Positions 1 through 6,419 of a stretch of DNA of 14,779 nt are shown here, in pieces. The stretch's first letter is position 1. Each line of letters begins with the position of its first letter. Source of the DNA: Longimicrobiales bacterium (GTDB lineage: Bacteria; Gemmatimonadota; Gemmatimonadetes; Longimicrobiales; RSA9); the NCBI GenBank assembly GCA_039912685.1, contig JBDSPG010000057.1:1-14779 (forward strand). Direction: 5' to 3'. Made by a program: the position numbers and the translations under genes. The notes beneath the pieces are model-generated. The model worked only from the letters and a program-made list of their open reading frames with translations. It had not been told where the DNA came from and did no database searches.

Positions 1-418
1 GATTCACCTGCAGTGTAACTTCCTCACGCAGCTCGGCGATCGCCGATTCGCGGCTCTGCGCCATTAGCACGAACATTGACAGAAAGATCGCCTCCAGCGA
101 GACGATCATGGTCAGCAGGCCGAACGGGAACGGATCGAAGGGGCGCAGTCCGAACGCGCGAGTATTCCAGGCGATCCATACCGCAAACCACAGAACATGA
201 AGATTGAAGAAAGTGGCGGAGCTGGCAGCCCTCGTGAGCGAGTCTGCGAGCCGCTCCATGATCGTGCGGTCCGCAGCATGGCCGGCTTTGAGTGCGCGCA
301 TCGCGCGCGATACGCTGCGCGCACCGCGTCGGTCGACACCGGTATCCGCCTGGTCGGCGAGTTGCGGCGTCGCGTCCTGGAGCTGTACGGGTTCCGGGTT
401 TTCGTGCATGGGACGCAT
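1..418 (-). CDS. DUF1003 (PF06210-like) small membrane protein, 3' end cut off by the window edge
   Basis: Absent from the ORF track because it runs off the window. Hand translation of the minus strand from the ATG at 418-416 gives MRPMHENPEPVQLQDATPQLADQADTGVDRRGARSVSRAMRALKAGHAADRTIMERLADSLTRAASSATFFNLHVLWFAVWIAWNTRAFGLRPFDPFPFGLLTMIVSLEAIFLSMFVLMAQSRESAIAELREEVTLQVN, still open at position 1. There is an in-frame TAA at 461-463 just upstream. The 'WFAVWIAWNT...FDPFPFGLLTMIVSLEAIFLSMFVLMAQSRE' core matches the two-helix DUF1003 signature (fDPyPF..LLn..lS..aa...l.lMsQNRq). The listed 24..515(-) ORF is in a different frame and is Arg/Pro-rich GC-frame junk. Confidence 0.65.
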   Translation of the reverse strand, partial: MRPMHENPEPVQLQDATPQLADQADTGVDRRGARSVSRAMRALKAGHAADRTIMERLADSLTRAASSATFFNLHVLWFAVWIAWNTRAFGLRPFDPFPFGLLTMIVSLEAIFLSMFVLMAQSRESAIAELREEVTLQVN

Positions 419-478
419 GATGGCGATTATCGTGCCCCGCAGCCAGCGCGATGGGTCGCTTTACGAGCCACGGGATCT

Positions 479-1213
479 CTACCAGCGCCGGACCAAACCC
501 ACGCCGACATACCATTCGCCCGCGCCATTAAGCCGATGCCCCACTCGCGCGTCCAGCTGCAGGTCTCCTGTGATGCTGCGCGTCATCCCGACATCCGTGA
601 AAACCGCATGGTCCCGAAACGGGCCGTTGAGCACGCGAGTGCCGTATGCCTCGGCGAAGACTCCCGTGCGCCTCCCGATCTCAGCACCCAGGACAATGCT
701 GCCACTCGCTTCGCCCGACCGGCCGGATGGTCCGGGCTGTGAAGCGAATGATGCATTCGCACCCAGCGCGACGCTCTCACTCAATGGACGCTCCAGGGAC
801 AACAGGACTTCAGGTACCACGCCATCCGCCGTTTCCGTTGACGCACCCGTCGGAAATATGGCACCCACGATGACCGCGGCCCGCGGTGAAAGCGAAAATT
901 TTGCGCCGATGCCAGCGTCCTCGATGCCGTTCGCCTCGACACCATTCCCACGCGTCAGCACGTAGGAGTTCGCCAACACGCGCAGTTCGAACCTGCGCGT
1001 CAGACCGATACGCAGCAGCAGCTCACCAATCGCGTGGCGACTGATGCCGTCGGTGCGCGTCAGTGTGTATCCGCTCTCCAGCTGCGGACGCGACACCACG
1101 ACCACGCTCTCGGTGAAGTCCGGACGATCACTCGTCAGCTCCTGTGATGATGCGGCTGCCGGTAGCATGAGAACCACGGCAAACAGGAACGGTACCGTCG
1201 GACGTCGCATCAT
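479..1213 (-). CDS. Outer-membrane beta-barrel protein, PF13557 (MetA-pathway/'transporter' family)-like, with signal peptide
   Basis: 244 aa. N-terminal signal peptide MMRRPTVPFLFAVVLMLPAAASSQE. Mature N-terminus TSDRPDFTESVVVVSRPQLESGYTLTRTDG...LLLRIGLTRRFELRV resembles the family consensus (tDRPgft.s..tv..G.lQlEsGyt...lRiGltd.lElrl). Remainder is rich in alternating beta-strand patterns and ends in aromatic W. Its ATG (1213) overlaps the ZIP gene stop as ATGA. Confidence 0.65.
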   Translation of the reverse strand: MMRRPTVPFLFAVVLMLPAAASSQELTSDRPDFTESVVVVSRPQLESGYTLTRTDGISRHAIGELLLRIGLTRRFELRVLANSYVLTRGNGVEANGIEDAGIGAKFSLSPRAAVIVGAIFPTGASTETADGVVPEVLLSLERPLSESVALGANASFASQPGPSGRSGEASGSIVLGAEIGRRTGVFAEAYGTRVLNGPFRDHAVFTDVGMTRSITGDLQLDARVGHRLNGAGEWYVGVGLVRRW

Positions 1214-2388
1214 GCCGCGACGAACAGGCCGGTCGCGTACATCACGAGCATGCCGAGCGCAAACCCGGCTGCATTGCGTGGACTCGTCAGACCGCGCTCA
1301 CTGCCCGCGAAGAAGCTCGCAATTGCGTAGATGACCTGCGCAATTGCACCCGCTCCGATTGCGAAGAACAACGTGGTAAGTACGGGCGAATAGCTCAACC
1401 CGCCGATCCACGCACCTGCAATAGTCGGCAACCCCGCCAGCAGGCCCAGGCCGATCAGTCGGCTCACACGCGGGCGACCACTTGCCAGCGGCGTAACGAT
1501 CGCAAGGCCTTCCGTCGTATTGTGCAGCAGGAAACCAAGCACCAGGAACGTACCAAGCGCGATCTCTCCCGTCGCATACGCACTACCGACTGCCAGACCC
1601 TCGCCGAGATTGTGCAGTCCGATTCCGATCGCGACCAGCAGCGCCAGACGGTTTGCTGCGCCTTCACCGGTTTGCGTGCGAGAACTGTCCGCACGTCCGA
1701 GTGCAAAGAGCAGCAGCGCCGTCAGCGTGCTGCCGAGCATGACAATGCCGAGCCCCTGATACGCACCGGGAACCAGCTGTGACATATCAAGCGCCTCTGC
1801 CATTGCTTCAATGCCGAGGAAAAGCAGCAGGCCGACCGTGAACGCGAGGAAGAAATCGAGGGTCTCGTGTTCTACTCGGCGAAGGAACGGCAGCCACAAC
1901 AGACCGAGCAGCACAGGAATCACGCCGACATATATGCCGAGCACCGCAAACATGCCGATCTGTTTTGCGCCCGCGCGCGGCGTCTGCACCGCCGCTTGCA
2001 CTTCACTTTCGAACGTCACGCCCGTGCTCGTGACGAGCTTCACTACGTGACGCTCGCCCGTGACCCACGGATATGGAATGGTGATGACACGCGACGACAG
2101 ACGCTCCATGCGACGATCGCCATCGAGCGTGTGCACCCATGCCGCATCATCGATCGTGATCTGCGCGATCGTCACCGGCTCCGCGCCGCCGTTCACAACC
2201 CGTAGCTTCATCACGTTCGGCTCCGGCAGCGTAATTCGCTCGATGACCAGATCTTCAACCGGGATCGCACCTGATTCAAGCATGCCGAGCGGTCCGTGAC
2301 GAAGCAGAATGACAACGAGGATCGCCAGCAGCGCGAGCGGAAACAGTGCGCGCACCCACAGCGACGTATTGCTGCTTGTCTCAGGCAT
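1210..2388 (-). CDS. ZIP-family divalent metal permease (ZupT-like 8-TM core) with an extra N-terminal TM anchor plus a ~110-aa extracytoplasmic beta-rich domain
   Basis: 392 aa. Core motifs GIGLHNLGEGLAVG and FLLHNTTEGLAIV are the ZIP TM4/TM5 metal-site signatures (HNxxEG). Residues ~12-30 form a TM helix. Residues ~31-140 (VEDLVIERITLPEPNVMKLRVVNGGAEPVTIAQITIDDAAWVHTLDGDRRMERLSSRVITIPYPWVTGERHVVKLVTSTGVTFESEV) are hydrophilic and beta-rich before the first core helix. The ATG at 2388 forms an 8-nt overlap (ATGCCTGA) with the MCO stop. Confidence 0.85.
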   Translation of the reverse strand: MPETSSNTSLWVRALFPLALLAILVVILLRHGPLGMLESGAIPVEDLVIERITLPEPNVMKLRVVNGGAEPVTIAQITIDDAAWVHTLDGDRRMERLSSRVITIPYPWVTGERHVVKLVTSTGVTFESEVQAAVQTPRAGAKQIGMFAVLGIYVGVIPVLLGLLWLPFLRRVEHETLDFFLAFTVGLLLFLGIEAMAEALDMSQLVPGAYQGLGIVMLGSTLTALLLFALGRADSSRTQTGEGAANRLALLVAIGIGLHNLGEGLAVGSAYATGEIALGTFLVLGFLLHNTTEGLAIVTPLASGRPRVSRLIGLGLLAGLPTIAGAWIGGLSYSPVLTTLFFAIGAGAIAQVIYAIASFFAGSERGLTSPRNAAGFALGMLVMYATGLFVAA

Positions 2389-3436
2389 GGACTACCGGGC
2401 GGACATTGAATGCACCCGACCAGCCGAGCTCCGCAAACTCGCTTTGATGTGCGTGGAACATGAACTGGCCCGTGTGCTTGTAACGGAACTCCACAACACC
2501 ACGCTCGCCCTGGCACAGCGCAACTGTGTCCGTCGACTCGTACTGCGTCAGGGTCGTGCCGGTCCTGTAGTACTTGAAGATGTTGCCGTGCAGATGAAAT
2601 GAATTCAACAGATCGAATTCCGTCATGTTGCCGAGATAGATGCGCACCAGCTCGCCCTGATCGATCTGGATGGGATGCTTCTGGTAATGAAATGCGACGC
2701 TGTTCACCGCGTACACTTCATTGTCATTGTCGAGGTTCGTGTCAAAGCCATTCATCATCATCACCATCTCGCGCGCTGGCTCGCGCGGCGTCGGTGGATC
2801 GATGATGAACATGCCGTACAGGCCCTTGTGGATGTGGCGCTTGAACGGCGGTACGTGACAGTGGTACAGGTGAACGCCGAACGGCTCCGCGTCGAACTCA
2901 TACACGAACGCGCTTCCGGGCTGCACGATTTCCATCGCGCCATCCATGTTCGCCGGATGAACGCCATGAAAATGCATCGTGTGCGGGTGCGTGCCGCCAT
3001 TCACGAACCGGACTCGCACGCGGTCACCCTCCGTGCAGCGGATCGTCGGACCCGGCACGCTGCCGTTGTACGTCCACGCGGGGAAATAAAGGCCGGGCGC
3101 GATCTCGATCTCGCGATTCGTCGCAACGATCTCGTACTCGCGTACCCTACGGCCGTCCGCGGATGCGGCCTCGCGGCCATATTCGAAGTGTGTCAGAAAT
3201 GCATCGGGATCGAGGCCACCGGGCTTGATGTCACCTACAACATCGAGTGCGTGCGGTGAGTGTGCGTCATGCGACGACATCAGCGGGGTCACCGTCGACT
3301 CAGGCGCAGACCCTGCAACCGCCCGCGCGATCCCCGCGGATGCCGCGGCCACGGCCGCTGTGCCCAACGCGCCCCTGCGCAGAAGAGTCCGTCGTGTAAT
3401 GGATTTGTCGTTCCGATCGGTCATAGGCCCGCCCAT
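2381..3436 (-). CDS. TAT-secreted two-domain multicopper oxidase (small laccase/NirK-like fold)
   Basis: Copper-ligand motifs in order: HPHTMHFHG (HxH), HLYHCHV...HIH...M (HCH plus T1 His/Met), FHLHG (HxH), FHAHQ (HxH). Twin-arginine signal TRRTLLRRGALGTAAVAAASAGIARA. His-rich mature N-terminus SSHDAHSPHALD. The track ORF 2381..3916 carries a 160-aa Arg-rich N-terminal extension that overlaps the regulator gene and is rejected. Start chosen at the ATG at 3436 (MGGPMTDRNDKSITRR...); an alternative ATG lies at 3424 (MTDRNDK...). Confidence 0.8.
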   Translation of the reverse strand: MGGPMTDRNDKSITRRTLLRRGALGTAAVAAASAGIARAVAGSAPESTVTPLMSSHDAHSPHALDVVGDIKPGGLDPDAFLTHFEYGREAASADGRRVREYEIVATNREIEIAPGLYFPAWTYNGSVPGPTIRCTEGDRVRVRFVNGGTHPHTMHFHGVHPANMDGAMEIVQPGSAFVYEFDAEPFGVHLYHCHVPPFKRHIHKGLYGMFIIDPPTPREPAREMVMMMNGFDTNLDNDNEVYAVNSVAFHYQKHPIQIDQGELVRIYLGNMTEFDLLNSFHLHGNIFKYYRTGTTLTQYESTDTVALCQGERGVVEFRYKHTGQFMFHAHQSEFAELGWSGAFNVRPVVHA

Positions 3437-3457
3437 GTTTATGTCCCGCCCAACTTC

Positions 3458-3486
3458 ATAATTAGGCAGGACTAAAACAATGTCAA
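3458..3486 (-). promoter_or_regulatory. Putative sigma70 promoter for the MCO-ZIP-OMP string: TTGACA(-35)-N17-AATTAT(-10)
   Basis: Minus-strand reading of 3437-3519: ...GGCCTTGACATTGTTTTAGTCCTGCCTAATTATGAAGTTGGGCGGGACATAAAC-ATG. The -35 is a perfect TTGACA (plus 3481-3486). The spacer is 17 nt. The -10 AATTAT (plus 3458-3463) matches 4/6 including A2 and T6. Predicted TSS is ~14 nt upstream of the ATG at 3436. Confidence 0.4.
3462..3475. promoter_or_regulatory. Imperfect palindrome TTAGGCAGGACTAA in the promoter spacer; candidate DtxR/MntR-family operator
   Basis: Outer arms TTAG/CTAA are exact inverted repeats and resemble TTAGG/CCTAA half-sites of DtxR/IdeR-type boxes. It sits between -35 and -10, where repressors of this family typically bind. 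It lies 45 bp downstream of the regulator gene stop. Confidence 0.3.
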
Positions 3487-3519
3487 GGCCAGACTTTCTG
3501 TAATTTACCGCAAACGGGG

Positions 3520-4188
3520 TTAGGCGAGGTCTGGTTCCGGCGGGGCGACCTGGATTTTGGCGGCGATTTCGGCGCCGACCACGCATTCCGTGCCGGCGAC
3601 ACGTAGGCGCAGCGGCCCGTTGAAGGGCGCGCGGTCGAGGATCTCGAGCTGAGCGCCCGGGATCAGTCCAAGTTCGGCAAAGTAGCGGAGCTCGGCGGGG
3701 TCGTCGTCGGGGACTTGCCTCAAGAGTACGGCGGAGCCGACGGGTATTTCGGCAAGCGACGGCAGATGTACGTCTTCGAAAACTCCTGCGGCTGTCGGAA
3801 TTGGCGCGCCATGCGGATCCGCGACAGGTTCGCCGAGTGCCTTGGCCATTCGGTCGATGAGCTCCTCTGAGGCCGAGTGCTCTAGCTGTTCGGCTTCGGC
3901 ATGTACGCGGTCCCATGGGTAGCCGAGCACATGGACGAGGAATGCTTCCAGGATCCGATGACGCCGAATGGTGCGCACGGCGGTATGCGTCCCGCGCGCG
4001 GTCAGCCTCGCGCCATAATAGCGCGTGTGTTCGACGAGGCCCTGCTCCGCCAGCCGCTTGAGCATGCCGGTTACGGAGCCCGCCGCGATGCCGAGCTGGT
4101 CAGCGATCGCTGAAGTGCTTGCCGACTCCCCCTCACGGGAGAGCTGGTAGATCGCCTTGAGGTAGTCTTCGACCGCCGGACTCGTCAT
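3520..4188 (-). CDS. DtxR/MntR-family metal-dependent transcriptional regulator with C-terminal FeoA/SH3-like domain
   Basis: 222 aa. N-terminus MTSPAVEDYLKAIYQL is nearly identical to the B. subtilis MntR N-terminus (MTTPSMEDYIEQIYML). Winged-HTH residues ~20-70. Metal-site region H77...H96-E98-E100-E103-H104. C-terminal SH3-like segment VGSAVLLRQV...LRYFAELGLIPGAQLEIL. Confidence 0.9.
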   Translation of the reverse strand: MTSPAVEDYLKAIYQLSREGESASTSAIADQLGIAAGSVTGMLKRLAEQGLVEHTRYYGARLTARGTHTAVRTIRRHRILEAFLVHVLGYPWDRVHAEAEQLEHSASEELIDRMAKALGEPVADPHGAPIPTAAGVFEDVHLPSLAEIPVGSAVLLRQVPDDDPAELRYFAELGLIPGAQLEILDRAPFNGPLRLRVAGTECVVGAEIAAKIQVAPPEPDLA

Positions 4189-4203
4189 ACCGCAAGATGA
4201 CGT

Positions 4204-4227
4204 GCCGGTCGGAAAACGACAACCGGC
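4204..4227 (-). other. Stem-loop (GCCGG-TCG-GAAAA-CGA-CA-ACCGGC) between flotillin stop and regulator start
   Basis: Inverted repeat GCCGGT...ACCGGC with inner TCG/CGA pairing, in the 41-bp gap 4189-4229. No downstream U-tract on the transcribed (minus) strand, so it is not a canonical intrinsic terminator. Confidence 0.25.
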
Positions 4228-4229
4228 GT

Positions 4230-5723
4230 TTACGGTGCGTCGAGATTCGAACCAGCGGCAGGCGCTCCGACTTTCCCGCCCAGGTTCTTCATAAACGAAT
4301 CGAGGTCCAGCCCCATCGCGCCCGCGACCTGCTCGAGTGCGCGAATGGAAGCGTTCACTTTCTGCGACGTCGCATTAGCGACGCCCTGACCGTTTCCGCT
4401 GTCGATGACAGTGAGGCGGTCGATCTGCACATCCTTCATGGCATCGACGGTGACGCCGAGCAGCGCCGGCATCTTTTCGGCGAGGAAGACCTGCAGTCCG
4501 ATATCGCCGCCCTTGGCGATCTGGGCGAACAGCAGGGCAAGTACTTCCGCCTGCGCGCGACCGCTCTCCATGATCGGGGCGGCCTCCGCCTTGGCGGCAG
4601 ACTCCGCGGCCATACGCGCCGCTTCCGCGGGTTGCACGACATCTGCCTGCAGCCTTGTGCGCTCCGTTTTCACGCGCTGCTCCTGATACGCAGTCTGCGC
4701 TTCCGACTCGGCGCGCTGTGCATTCGCGTGCGCAACCTTTTCCGCGGTTTCCGAAAGCTGCAGCAGCTCCGCCTGTCGTACACGGAGTGCATTCTTCGCT
4801 TCGGAAATTTTCACGTCAGCATTCGCCTGCGCGACTTCCGCGATCTGCTTGGACGCCGCCTGCTGTGTGCGGATCTCCGCGTCCGCCGTAGCGTTCGCGA
4901 CTTCCGCGCGCTGACGTGCCTGCGCCTGGCTCTCCTTGACGTGCGCCTCTGCTTCAGCCTGCGCGACCTGCGCCATCTTGGTCGCTTCCGCCTGCTGCTG
5001 CTTGATCTGTGCGTCGGCCATCGCAGCCGCAACTTCTGCGACGCGCTTCGCTTCGGACTGGCGCAGCCGAGTTTCCGCGATTGCGTTCGCCTTTGCGATC
5101 TCGGCATCACGCAGTGCTTCCGCAGTGGCCTTCTCACCAATCGCCTGCAGATATCCGACCTTGTCGCTTACATGCTGAATCTTGAGCACGTCGAGCTGCA
5201 GGCCGAGCTTCTTCAGGTCGTGATCGGCTTCCTCGGAGAGATGCTCTGCGAATCCGAGACGGTCTTCGTTGACCTGCTCCGGCGTCAGCTTCGACAGCAC
5301 GCCACGCAGGTTACCGGTCAACGTTTCGCGCGCGAGACGCTCGATCTCCGCCTGCGTCTTGCCGAGCAGTCTTTCGACGGCGTTGTTGAATACGGCTTCC
5401 GGTGAGGACGCGATCTTCACGTTCGCGATGGCCTGCACCGCGAGCGGGATGTTGCCTTTGGAGTACGCGTCATCAACGCTGATCTCGAGCGGGATCGTGC
5501 CGAGCGTTAGCCACTGCACGCGTTCCAGAATGGGTATGCGCAGGGTGCGACCGCCGGTTACGGTGCGATAACCGACGCTGCTGCCATCACCGAGCGCGCG
5601 TTTGCGACCCGTAATTGCTGCCGCCATGTTTGGCGGCACGATGATCACGAGGCGGTTTATCGTGAAAAGGATGAGCACTGCGACGGCAAGCAGTACGCCA
5701 CCGATGATCAAGCCCGTATTCAT
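4230..5723 (-). CDS. Flotillin-like SPFH/Band-7 protein (FloT/YqiK type)
   Basis: 497 aa. N-terminal TM helix, then SPFH core (PILERVQWLTLGTIPLEISVDDAYSKGNIPLAVQAIANVKI...). Long Ala/Glu/Gln coiled-coil with ~22-residue repeats. Gly/Ala-rich C-terminus. Start ATG 5723 lies 2 nt after the NfeD gene stop. Confidence 0.9.
   Translation of the reverse strand: MNTGLIIGGVLLAVAVLILFTINRLVIIVPPNMAAAITGRKRALGDGSSVGYRTVTGGRTLRIPILERVQWLTLGTIPLEISVDDAYSKGNIPLAVQAIANVKIASSPEAVFNNAVERLLGKTQAEIERLARETLTGNLRGVLSKLTPEQVNEDRLGFAEHLSEEADHDLKKLGLQLDVLKIQHVSDKVGYLQAIGEKATAEALRDAEIAKANAIAETRLRQSEAKRVAEVAAAMADAQIKQQQAEATKMAQVAQAEAEAHVKESQAQARQRAEVANATADAEIRTQQAASKQIAEVAQANADVKISEAKNALRVRQAELLQLSETAEKVAHANAQRAESEAQTAYQEQRVKTERTRLQADVVQPAEAARMAAESAAKAEAAPIMESGRAQAEVLALLFAQIAKGGDIGLQVFLAEKMPALLGVTVDAMKDVQIDRLTVIDSGNGQGVANATSQKVNASIRALEQVAGAMGLDLDSFMKNLGGKVGAPAAGSNLDAP
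4689..5126 (-). repeat. Imperfect tandem nucleotide periodicity encoding the flotillin EA-rich coiled-coil (22-aa units such as AEVAxAxADAxI...)
   Basis: Protein residues ~200-345 show repeating units RVAEVAAAMADAQIKQQQAEATKM / AQVAQAEAEAHVKESQAQARQR / AEVANATADAEIRTQQAASKQI / AEVAQANADVKISEAKNALRVRQ. The DNA shows recurring gcgcctgcgc / ttccgcg / cttcgc blocks. This also generates long spurious ORFs in other frames. Confidence 0.4.
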
Positions 5724-5725
5724 CT

Positions 5726-6301
5726 TTACTCCGTTTCAGAAGGAAGGAGCGCATCCGCGCGCTCGAACTCGTGGAGAGGCGATACGAACGCAGTGCCTCC
5801 CCTTATCTCTACGACGACAACCTGCTTCCAGGTTTCGGGCTGCAGCGCATTCTTGTCATAGCATTCCGCCATCAGCTCGATTTCGCGACCGCTTCGCTCG
5901 ACGGCAATTTTCCCTCTGCCGCCGCGCAGCGGCAGCACGACGTGGCCGAGCAGACCTTCGAACGAAGCATCCGTTTCCATTGCACCGGAGTTCGTCTGTT
6001 TCAGGTAGCGGAACATCGCGACGCTTGTGAAGGCCGACACAATGCCGGTGAAGAGCGCGCCGAAAAACGCGAGCAGCGGCGCCTTCCCGCCCGACGTGAA
6101 GTGCACCAGCACACCGACCGCGCCGAACGCGAACAGGAAGTACGTCGCTGCGCGCAGTGAAAAGAGCTGCCAGTGCGAATCGGCGCCGTCGTGTTCGATG
6201 TGGATGTGATCGGCCCCCTCGGAGCCGAAGAAATCGCCGGCGAGGGAGAAGAGTGCGAGGCCGCCCCCGAGAACGAGAGCGAACCAGAACAGCGTCAGCA
6301 T
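5726..6301 (-). CDS. NfeD/YqiJ-like membrane protein (flotillin-associated)
   Basis: Two or three N-terminal TM helices (MLTLFWFALVLGGGLALFSLAG...; LFSLRAATYFLFAFGAVGVLV; LLAFFGALFTGIVSAFTSVAMF). C-terminal soluble beta-rich domain (GLLGHVVLPLRGGRGKIAVERSGREIELMAECYDK...VVVVEIRGGTAFVSPL) typical of the NfeD OB-fold. Sits immediately upstream of the flotillin, the canonical gene pair. The track start (GTG at 6406) is replaced by the ATG at 6301, which has a strong SD (GGAGGATCCC-ATG) and leaves a sensible 118-bp divergent intergenic region to the MATE gene. Confidence 0.75.
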   Translation of the reverse strand: MLTLFWFALVLGGGLALFSLAGDFFGSEGADHIHIEHDGADSHWQLFSLRAATYFLFAFGAVGVLVHFTSGGKAPLLAFFGALFTGIVSAFTSVAMFRYLKQTNSGAMETDASFEGLLGHVVLPLRGGRGKIAVERSGREIELMAECYDKNALQPETWKQVVVVEIRGGTAFVSPLHEFERADALLPSETE

Positions 6302-6419
6302 GGGATCCTCCGAAGTGCCGACGGCGCGATATCGTGCCGGAGCGGCGGGTGTCCTACCAAGATAATAGCGGCCGGACGGGACGCCATGAAAATCGGAGCG
6401 GTACACGGTATCTTATCCC

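Follow-up and report, generated by a model that had tools for sequence, protein, structure and literature searches.

In ammonia-oxidising archaea (AOA), the two-domain multicopper oxidase (MCO) MCO1 is encoded beside a ZIP permease as a conserved pair, for which a coupling similar to that of Fet3/Ftr1 has been proposed (Kerou et al. 2016, as cited; PMC7785015, PMC5817080). A comparable pair was found on a contig (JBDSPG010000057.1) of the metagenome-assembled genome (MAG) of a Longimicrobiales soil bacterium (Gemmatimonadota), a stretch of 14,779 nt that was analysed as a whole and is referred to below as the window. All genes of the operon lie on the minus strand and encode a DtxR/MntR-family regulator, a two-domain MCO, a ZIP permease and an outer-membrane (OM) barrel. 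The archaeal pair, likewise uncharacterised, differs in that MCO1 is described as restricted to its thaumarchaeal lineage (PMC7785015) and is discussed in connection with copper uptake. No DtxR/MntR regulator, operator, MntH or OM barrel is mentioned in PMC7785015 or PMC5817080; PMC7785015 reports the leucine in the axial position of the type-1 (T1) copper site that is also likely in the window MCO.

Two further systems resemble the regulatory and envelope components. In Corynebacterium glutamicum, the ZIP gene mntT is repressed by the Mn-responsive DtxR-type regulator MntR (MntR-MntT, cg0741/cg1623; Baumgart and Frunzke 2015, cited in PMC11933003), with no oxidase partner reported in that account. 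In Bradyrhizobium japonicum, the OM channel MnoP is co-regulated with the inner-membrane Mn2+ importer MntH under Mn limitation (Hohle et al. 2011, summarised in PMC9334652); there, however, the regulator Mur belongs to the Fur family, and the summary includes neither an MCO nor a ZIP.

The first-pass annotation of the window had drawn a parallel to the Fet3-Ftr1 ferroxidase-permease system. Extracytoplasmic copper proteins or MCOs are likewise obligately paired and co-expressed with a metal permease in bacterial EfeUOB, FetMP and P19-Ftr1. The oxidase-permease logic is indeed shared, but the permease is of another kind: in this class, Ftr1/EfeU carries Fe3+ and contains the REXXE motif, whereas here a two-domain MCO is combined with a ZIP bearing HNxxEG motifs and with a Mn-type regulator. 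Yeast Fet3p and its permease are also cited in the archaeal work (PMC7785015). The resemblance to CopA/CopB (PcoA/PcoB), in which a periplasmic MCO and an OM barrel share one operon, proved superficial, as the window MCO has two domains and fails the copper_res_A model (80 versus 479 bits), and the barrel matches only PF13557. CopA and PcoA are three-domain, Met-rich, Cu-induced proteins, and CopB belongs to a different OM protein family.

Solved structures of two-domain MCOs (7rab/7rac and 3gdc) belong to the same protein family as the window MCO. The PDB entries 7rab and 3gdc come with no record of a physiological function or partner, and a literature search for these codes returned nothing. 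The literature searched for MCO together with ZIP, also in combination with MntR or DtxR, contained no description of a bacterial MCO-ZIP system; the pairing itself, however, is known from AOA, and a DtxR-type MntR acting on a ZIP is known from C. glutamicum. These precedents temper the novelty of the pair, which is widespread, conserved and unexplained. To our knowledge, a functional partnership between a ZIP and an MCO, both central to metal biology, has never been demonstrated. A speculative remark from archaeal genomics thereby becomes a testable system in culturable carriers such as Haloferax mediterranei (pHM300; HFX_RS16530-16545), Rhodococcus erythropolis PR4 (pREL1; RER_RS00570-00560), Sinorhizobium fredii NGR234 and Chroococcidiopsis thermalis PCC 7203.

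Conservation and properties of the oxidase-permease pair

A ZIP profile search of a species-genome collection yielded 288 relatives. The 80 highest-ranking loci were retained, and almost all of them came from Gemmatimonadota, with Ca. Fervidifonticultor and a Bipolaricaulia MAG in addition. Five metagenome loci were added, giving 85 loci, a few of which duplicate one another. Gene order was assigned by tblastn anchoring. Greedy longest-ORF calling in this GC-rich DNA gave spurious antisense open reading frames (ORFs).

Synteny in relatives had been named beforehand as the test of the proposed gene string, and its outcome was strongly positive. The MCO gene was found immediately upstream of the ZIP gene in 82 of the 85 loci, and the remaining three contain less than 150 nt of upstream DNA, which leaves 82 of 82 informative loci. 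The pairing is not a chance event, and the pair is obligate. The architectures included MCO-ZIP-OMP2 (19 loci), REG-MntH-MCO-ZIP-OMP2 (16), REG-MCO-ZIP-OMP2 (15), MCO-ZIP (14), REG-MCO-ZIP (11) and MCO-ZIP-REG (4), where REG denotes the regulator gene and OMP2 a secreted protein described below. A regulator gene was adjacent in 47 of the 85 loci. In 18 loci an Nramp/MntH gene (472 bits) was inserted between regulator and MCO, its start overlapping the regulator stop.

The MCO stop and the ZIP start overlapped in 85 of 89 cases, by 8 nt in 77, by 14 nt in three and as ATGA in five; in the 8-nt overlaps, an ATG, GTG or TTG start of the ZIP gene stood at the same position. The translational coupling claimed for the window is thus a property kept in its relatives.

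The ZIP permease comprises an extra N-terminal transmembrane (TM) helix (residues 7-31) and the eight-helix ZIP fold (residues 141-391), with the metal-binding motifs HNLGEG and HNTTEG in TM4 and TM5. It scored below the gathering threshold of Pfam PF02535 (30.7 versus 35.1 bits) and below the ZupT model (48 versus 252 bits); homologues carry a precomputed PF02535 match. When compared with BbZIP, an E-value of 1.6e-8 was obtained by sequence, HNLGEG being aligned to HNLPEG, and a probability of 1.00 with TMt 0.65 by Foldseek (AF2 model, pLDDT 88.5), with all eight helices superposed. Residues H259, N260, E263, H289, N290 and E293 are invariant in the homologues.

Between the extra helix (TM0) and TM1 of the ZIP fold lies a domain with a generic Ig-like beta-sandwich fold. 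Its profile covered 784 clusters at 50% identity, and the best 150 listed were all at most about 430 aa long, which is consistent with a domain confined to ZIPs as an N-terminal module. Because ZIP N-termini are extracytoplasmic, this domain should face the periplasm, and it would then share a compartment with the MCO, which is predicted to be exported by twin-arginine translocation (TAT).

The N-terminus of the MCO, SITRRTLLRRGALGTAAVAAASAG, contains the twin-arginine motif TRRTLL ahead of a hydrophobic stretch; of the 81 relatives whose 5' end is complete, at least 79 have RR motifs. Matches to the solved two-domain MCOs extended across both cupredoxin domains with all ligand motifs in common (374 bits to 7rab, 354 bits to 3gdc), which places the protein in the two-domain type that has its T1 copper in domain 1. 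Thirteen residues (H150, H152, H155, H157, H160, H192, C193, H194, H201, H281, H283, H328 and H330) were invariant in 85 of 85 homologues from all sampled phyla. These twelve histidines and Cys193 supply a full trinuclear centre and a T1 site, the ligands having been assigned by motif and not by structure: HFH (155/157), HCH (192-194), HLH (281/283), HAH (328/330) and H201. The probable axial T1 position, 206, is leucine in 81 of 85 homologues. Given this invariant ligand set, the MCO is very likely enzymatically active; from its close similarity to the solved homologues, a homotrimer with oxidase activity and trinuclear centres at the subunit interfaces would be expected.

Identification of the MCO as NirK was considered and rejected, as TIGR02376 scored 102.7 versus 296.3 bits and matched domain 1 only, and all eight histidines of the trinuclear centre are present. 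Other NirK matches were weaker or confined to domain 1; Fet3 was found among the distant matches.

Four library ORFs (P0268, P0155, P0203 and P0159) join the C-terminal part of an MCO to the N-terminal part of a ZIP. They were discarded as Rosetta-stone evidence, since P0159 at least shows a frameshifted MCO and a fusion conflicts with the expected membrane topology. Probably they are assembly or frameshift artefacts at the overlapping stop and start.

The barrel of the window exceeds the PF13557 (Phenol_MetA_deg) cut-off (39.8 versus 22 bits) and has no other Pfam match; it carries a signal peptide (N-terminus MMRRPTVPFLFAVVLMLPAAASS) and a C-terminal aromatic residue (...VRRW). A close orthologue was found in only one of the 85 loci (L006, the nearest relative of the window). 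In 55 others, the position is occupied by a divergent secreted protein of about 280 aa, OMP2, whose start frequently overlaps the ZIP stop as ATGA. A single OMP2 sequence gave no Pfam match, and PF13557 emerged only when 23 members were scanned, 16 of which matched it (best value 1.9e-8). On this basis a PF13557-type barrel is taken to follow the ZIP gene in 56 of 85 loci. With hhalign, no significant similarity was detected between the window barrel (a two-sequence profile) and the OMP2 family (probability 0.4). In the other phyla sampled the barrel is missing; it is an addition made in Gemmatimonadota.

Outside Gemmatimonadota, the MCO-ZIP pair was found on plasmids of Deinococcus, Rubrobacter, Arthrobacter/Paenarthrobacter, Rhodococcus, Bacillaceae, rhizobia, Roseobacter-group bacteria, cyanobacteria and haloarchaea. 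The MCO gene was first and adjacent to the ZIP gene in 14 of 14 plasmid records with both coordinates listed, and ATGA overlaps were seen in Deinococcus, Paenarthrobacter, Rhodococcus, Sinorhizobium and Pseudanabaena loci. A DtxR/MntR-type regulator adjoins the pair in Deinococcus QL22, Paenarthrobacter AT5, Sinorhizobium M14, S. meliloti and Haloferax mediterranei, the genes of both Sinorhizobium M14 and S. meliloti being annotated as mntR. With carriers in Gemmatimonadota, Deinococcota, Actinomycetota, Bacillota, Alphaproteobacteria, Cyanobacteria and Haloarchaea, the pair is either old or highly mobile.

Additional genes accompany the pair in some lineages. On Rhodococcus plasmids, the gene of a Rieske (2Fe-2S) protein overlaps the ZIP stop, and in Haloferax mediterranei the ZIP gene and that of the DtxR-type regulator are separated by a plastocyanin/azurin-like gene; both proteins may be lineage-specific electron-transfer partners of the MCO. 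In Peribacillus asahii (L091, 9640-10603), separate tatA and tatC genes come after the pair, which would fit a TAT export route reserved for the oxidase in this monoderm.

Regulator, promoter and operator

The regulator consists of a winged helix-turn-helix domain (Fe_dep_repress, PF01325, 62.9 bits, cut-off 26), a dimerisation and metal-binding domain (Fe_dep_repr_C, PF02742, 98.1 bits, cut-off 27) and a C-terminal FeoA/SH3-like domain (PF04023, 70.4 bits), all above cut-off. This is the domain composition of the DtxR/MntR family of metal-dependent repressors. Scores remained below the NCBIfam MntR equivalog cut-offs for NF047407, NF008273 and NF003025 (186 versus 350, 81.5 versus 153 and 72 versus 138 bits, respectively), the best model being the Thermus-type MntR. 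Judged by these models, the protein is a member of the DtxR/MntR family and not a certified MntR equivalog.

Ranked by score, its PDB matches were 5zr4, 8pvt, SloR, ScaR and then IdeR; 5zr4 and 8pvt are presumably the Mn regulators of M. tuberculosis and D. radiodurans. In the alignment of VEDYLKAIY and HAEAEQLEH with TEMYLRTIY and HAEACRWEH of IdeR, Asp was found at the position of Met10 and Glu at that of Cys102, as in 5zr4, 8pvt, SloR and ScaR. Asp and Glu at these two positions of DtxR/IdeR are said to be determinants of Mn(II) selectivity, as reportedly established by Guedon and Helmann in 2003. By its residues, the regulator carries the ligand signature of the Mn(II)-sensing subgroup. 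Its earlier description as Mn/Fe-type rather than Cu-type was thereby sharpened to Mn-type, the closest structures also outranking IdeR and DtxR. Regulators beside the plasmid-borne pair, from four other phyla, likewise have Asp at the Met10 position and Asp or Glu at the Cys102 position.

A sigma-70-type promoter (TTGACA-17-AATTAT) and a palindrome (TTAG-N6-CTAA; TTAGTCCTGCCTAA on the minus strand) were both present, as the first-pass annotation had noted, but they lie after the regulator gene and not before it. The promoter is the sole sigma-70-like site on either strand of positions 1-4400. Shuffled sequence yielded a mean of 1.1 such sites per 4.4 kb, so a single site is close to chance level.

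For the palindrome, the predicted operator, one copy was found in the window versus 0.01 expected. Across 86 sequences (899 kb) it occurred 62 times, always a short way ahead of the gene that opens the cluster, compared with about four occurrences estimated from base composition. It precedes the cluster even in loci with no regulator gene nearby, and in plasmid loci it was found 61 nt (Deinococcus) and 77 nt (Haloferax) upstream of the MCO gene. In the upstream regions of relatives, a conserved TTGACA promoter is followed by a box near TTAGGCTAACCTAA in the -10/+1 region. Since the operator overlaps the core promoter, covering spacer and -10 here and the -10/+1 region in relatives, its geometry is that of a repressor site. 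The box resembles the DtxR/IdeR iron box (TTAGGTTAGCCTAACCTAA).

In a few loci (L001/L052, L004, L033, L036 and L075) the exact box was missing. L004, L033, L036 and L075 contain degenerate variants that end in TTAA or CTAA with a TTAA start. In L001/L052, no DtxR-type gene was found within 6 kb; the genes noted were those of an ArsR-type regulator and a DUF305/DUF4142 protein, together with a faint cupredoxin match, downstream. Regulation may have been rewired there.

Many Gemmatimonadales promoters among the upstream regions L013-L056 (e.g., L046, about 4110-4170) carry a second TTAGG-like element that abuts the -35 hexamer (TTGACATTAGGAGG...) upstream of the main box. It may be a second operator or a half-site.

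The regulator gene starts 41 nt past the stop of a flotillin gene, an order also seen in L006 (2116-3594), and no operator box was found between the two genes in the window. In both loci the box is downstream of the regulator gene. On account of this position and of the short distance to the flotillin gene, the regulator is probably not autoregulated through the TTAG-N6-CTAA site in the window; it may be read through from the unrelated flotillin operon.

Proposed function and its alternatives

We give an even chance to the operon being a trans-envelope uptake system for a divalent metal, most likely Mn2+, that is derepressed by Mn starvation and in which the oxidase is the obligate periplasmic partner of the ZIP. 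Under this model, the Mn(II)-bound repressor would occupy the TTAG-N6-CTAA operator across promoter spacer and -10 and block transcription. When Mn falls, three translationally coupled proteins would be made: the TAT-exported MCO, the ZIP with its N-domain on an extra membrane anchor, and the PF13557 barrel. The cation would cross the outer membrane through the barrel and the inner membrane through the ZIP, and the oxidase would probably be docked on the N-domain of the ZIP, with the invariant N66/D80/R92/R96/R100/PYPW surface as a candidate interface.

Several features jointly suggest that the operon is expressed when Mn is low and serves acquisition: the operator geometry, the Mn-type sensor residues, the co-operonic Nramp, the OM barrel, the MntR-ZIP case of C. 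glutamicum and the precedents for Mn import. According to the summary in PMC9334652, Mn is imported by ZIPs in Salmonella and Streptococcus and by the OM channel MnoP in Bradyrhizobium. Three functions had been proposed initially: oxidase-coupled acquisition of Mn(II)/Fe(II), periplasmic oxidation of these ions for detoxification, and detoxification of Cu(I). Acquisition fits best, given the repressor geometry and the coupling of MntH into the operon in 18 relatives, and the other two fit less well.

That oxidase and permease are universally paired and translationally coupled speaks for a partnership of the two, be it physical or kinetic. A stronger version, which we regard as possible but rather doubtful, is that MCO and N-domain ZIP assemble into a physical complex present in seven or more phyla of Bacteria and Archaea. 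Such a complex would correspond to Fet3-Ftr1 but be built on a ZIP, whose transport would depend on oxidase turnover or owe its metal selectivity to it, under a Mn-sensing repressor of the DtxR family. If this were true, the complex would represent a new mechanistic class of metal uptake and provide the first function for the family of crystallised two-domain MCOs (3gdc, 7rab). As for the role of the oxidase, a redox gate is preferred, albeit very tentatively: the enzyme would oxidise Fe2+ and Cu+ at the entrance to a promiscuous ZIP, thereby keeping Fenton-active ions out while redox-inert Mn2+ passes. The pair could in this way explain the selectivity of Mn import against Fe and Cu.

Several observations weigh against Mn2+ uptake. 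An oxidase is chemically awkward in such a system, because oxidising Mn2+ would remove the substrate of the ZIP. The regulator stays under the MntR equivalog cut-off, Mn-type DtxR relatives can respond to Fe or Cd as well, and the fold of the ZIP N-domain points to no particular metal. The plasmid-borne pairs usually have genes for copper and heavy metals as neighbours (Cu P-type ATPases, PCuAC, SCO, CopD, DUF305), and the MCO-ZIP pair of archaeal ammonia oxidisers is mildly induced by Cu limitation (PMC7785015).

The last two points belong to the main rival, a copper oxidase-permease of the Fet3/Ftr1 style, as proposed for archaeal MCO1 and its ZIP (PMC7785015, PMC5817080), in which the MCO oxidises periplasmic Cu+ and the ZIP imports the resulting Cu2+. 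Cu2+ is the only divalent-cation product of an MCO and thus suited to a ZIP, and an obligate pairing is what would be expected where the substrate of the permease is the product of the oxidase. The likely axial leucine is shared with MCO1 (PMC7785015), Cu limitation modestly raises MCO1 and the permease beside it (PMC7785015), and plasmid copies also have the gene of a four-helix Cu-binding protein next to them. Nevertheless, all adjacent regulators are of the DtxR/MntR type with hard O/N Mn-type ligands and none is of the CueR, CsoR or CopY type, MntH shares the operon in 18 loci, and no copper genes were found near the window operon or near most chromosomal Gemmatimonadota loci. Copper-related neighbours could also simply load copper into the MCO, and the archaeal pair is likened to this one by description, not by sequence. 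Copper uptake is therefore considered unlikely.

Iron handling linked to a ferroxidase, in which the regulator would sense Fe2+ as well as Mn2+ and the MCO and ZIP would act in iron acquisition or exclusion, was judged improbable. The distant Fet3 match and the resemblance of the operator to the iron box are in its favour; pairs of an MCO or cupredoxin with a permease are the rule in iron uptake (Fet3-Ftr1, EfeUOB, FetMP), and some Mn-type DtxR relatives sense Fe too. The regulator, however, lacks the Met10/Cys102 pair of Fe sensors, and ZIPs are not known as Fe3+ carriers, the present one having the ordinary HNxxEG motif and not REXXE. An Nramp in the operon likewise suggests Mn2+/Fe2+ and not Fe3+.

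Detoxification or efflux following the logic of ferroportin and ceruloplasmin is a very improbable reading of the operon. Here the ZIP would export Mn2+ or Fe2+ into the periplasm, or else excess Mn2+, Fe2+ or Cu+ would be oxidised there by the MCO, with the regulator activating transcription when metal is abundant. The Mn(II) oxidases known from bacteria are MCOs, the plasmid copies lie in metal-resistance islands, and B. subtilis MntR is described as an activator of efflux genes in the work cited in PMC9240420. The operator position, on the other hand, is that of a repressor both here and in relatives, the co-operonic MntH is an importer, and characterised ZIPs import into the cytoplasm.

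That the genes are mere neighbours with independent functions and promoters has next to no probability: the DUF1003 and upstream flotillin genes are truly unrelated neighbours, but synteny contradicts this explanation for MCO and ZIP, which are adjacent in 82 of 82 loci with the overlapping start and stop kept, share one conserved operator and recur in seven phyla or more.

Layout of the window

The coordinates of the features are collected in Table 1. Every element of the five-gene, same-strand string described in the first-pass annotation was present where it had been placed, on the minus strand, and both overlaps were confirmed by direct reading of the sequence. DUF1003, counted at first as part of the string, was found downstream in only one of the 85 loci (L006); it is a neighbour and not a conserved member.

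Table 1. Coordinates of the operon, its control elements and neighbouring genes in the window, and of putative electron-transfer partner genes in other loci
Feature	Position	Strand	Remarks
Regulator	4188-3520	minus	222 aa; Pfam domains
Intergenic gap, regulator to MCO		minus	83 nt
Sigma-70-type promoter TTGACA-17-AATTAT	3486..3458	minus	serves MCO-ZIP-OMP genes
Predicted operator palindrome TTAG-N6-CTAA	3475..3462		in promoter spacer, overlaps -10
MCO	3436-2381	minus	351 aa; Cu-oxidase_3 + Cu-oxidase_2
MCO/ZIP overlap ATGCCTGA	2388-2381	minus	8 nt, ZIP start over MCO stop
ZIP permease	2388-1210	minus	392 aa
ZIP Ig-like beta-sandwich domain	1999..2250	minus	residues 47-130, between TM0 and ZIP TM1
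ZIP/OMP overlap ATGA	1213-1210	minus	4 nt, OMP start over ZIP stop
Outer-membrane barrel (OMP)	1213-479	minus	244 aa; PF13557
Intergenic gap, OMP stop to DUF1003		minus	60 nt
DUF1003 membrane protein	418-1	minus	PF06210, 75.7 bits; runs off window edge
Flotillin/SPFH gene	4230-5723	minus	ends 41 nt before regulator start
Membrane-protein ORF upstream of flotillin	5726-6406	minus	no Pfam family
Rieske / plastocyanin-like partner genes, Rhodococcus and Haloferax	L088 9135-9548; L094 7050-7469; L092 7200-7520		

No metal genes were found among the remaining genes of the window, which encode the flotillin, a MATE pump, a MacB-like permease, GH26, GT2, a TPR protein and an RF-1-domain protein. Neither an Rfam family nor a tRNA was detected in the window, and it therefore contains no Mn riboswitch. 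Two antisense ORFs, 4197-5405 (plus strand, 402 aa) opposite the flotillin gene and 2675-3259 (plus strand, 194 aa) opposite the MCO gene, are typical spurious ORFs of GC-rich DNA.

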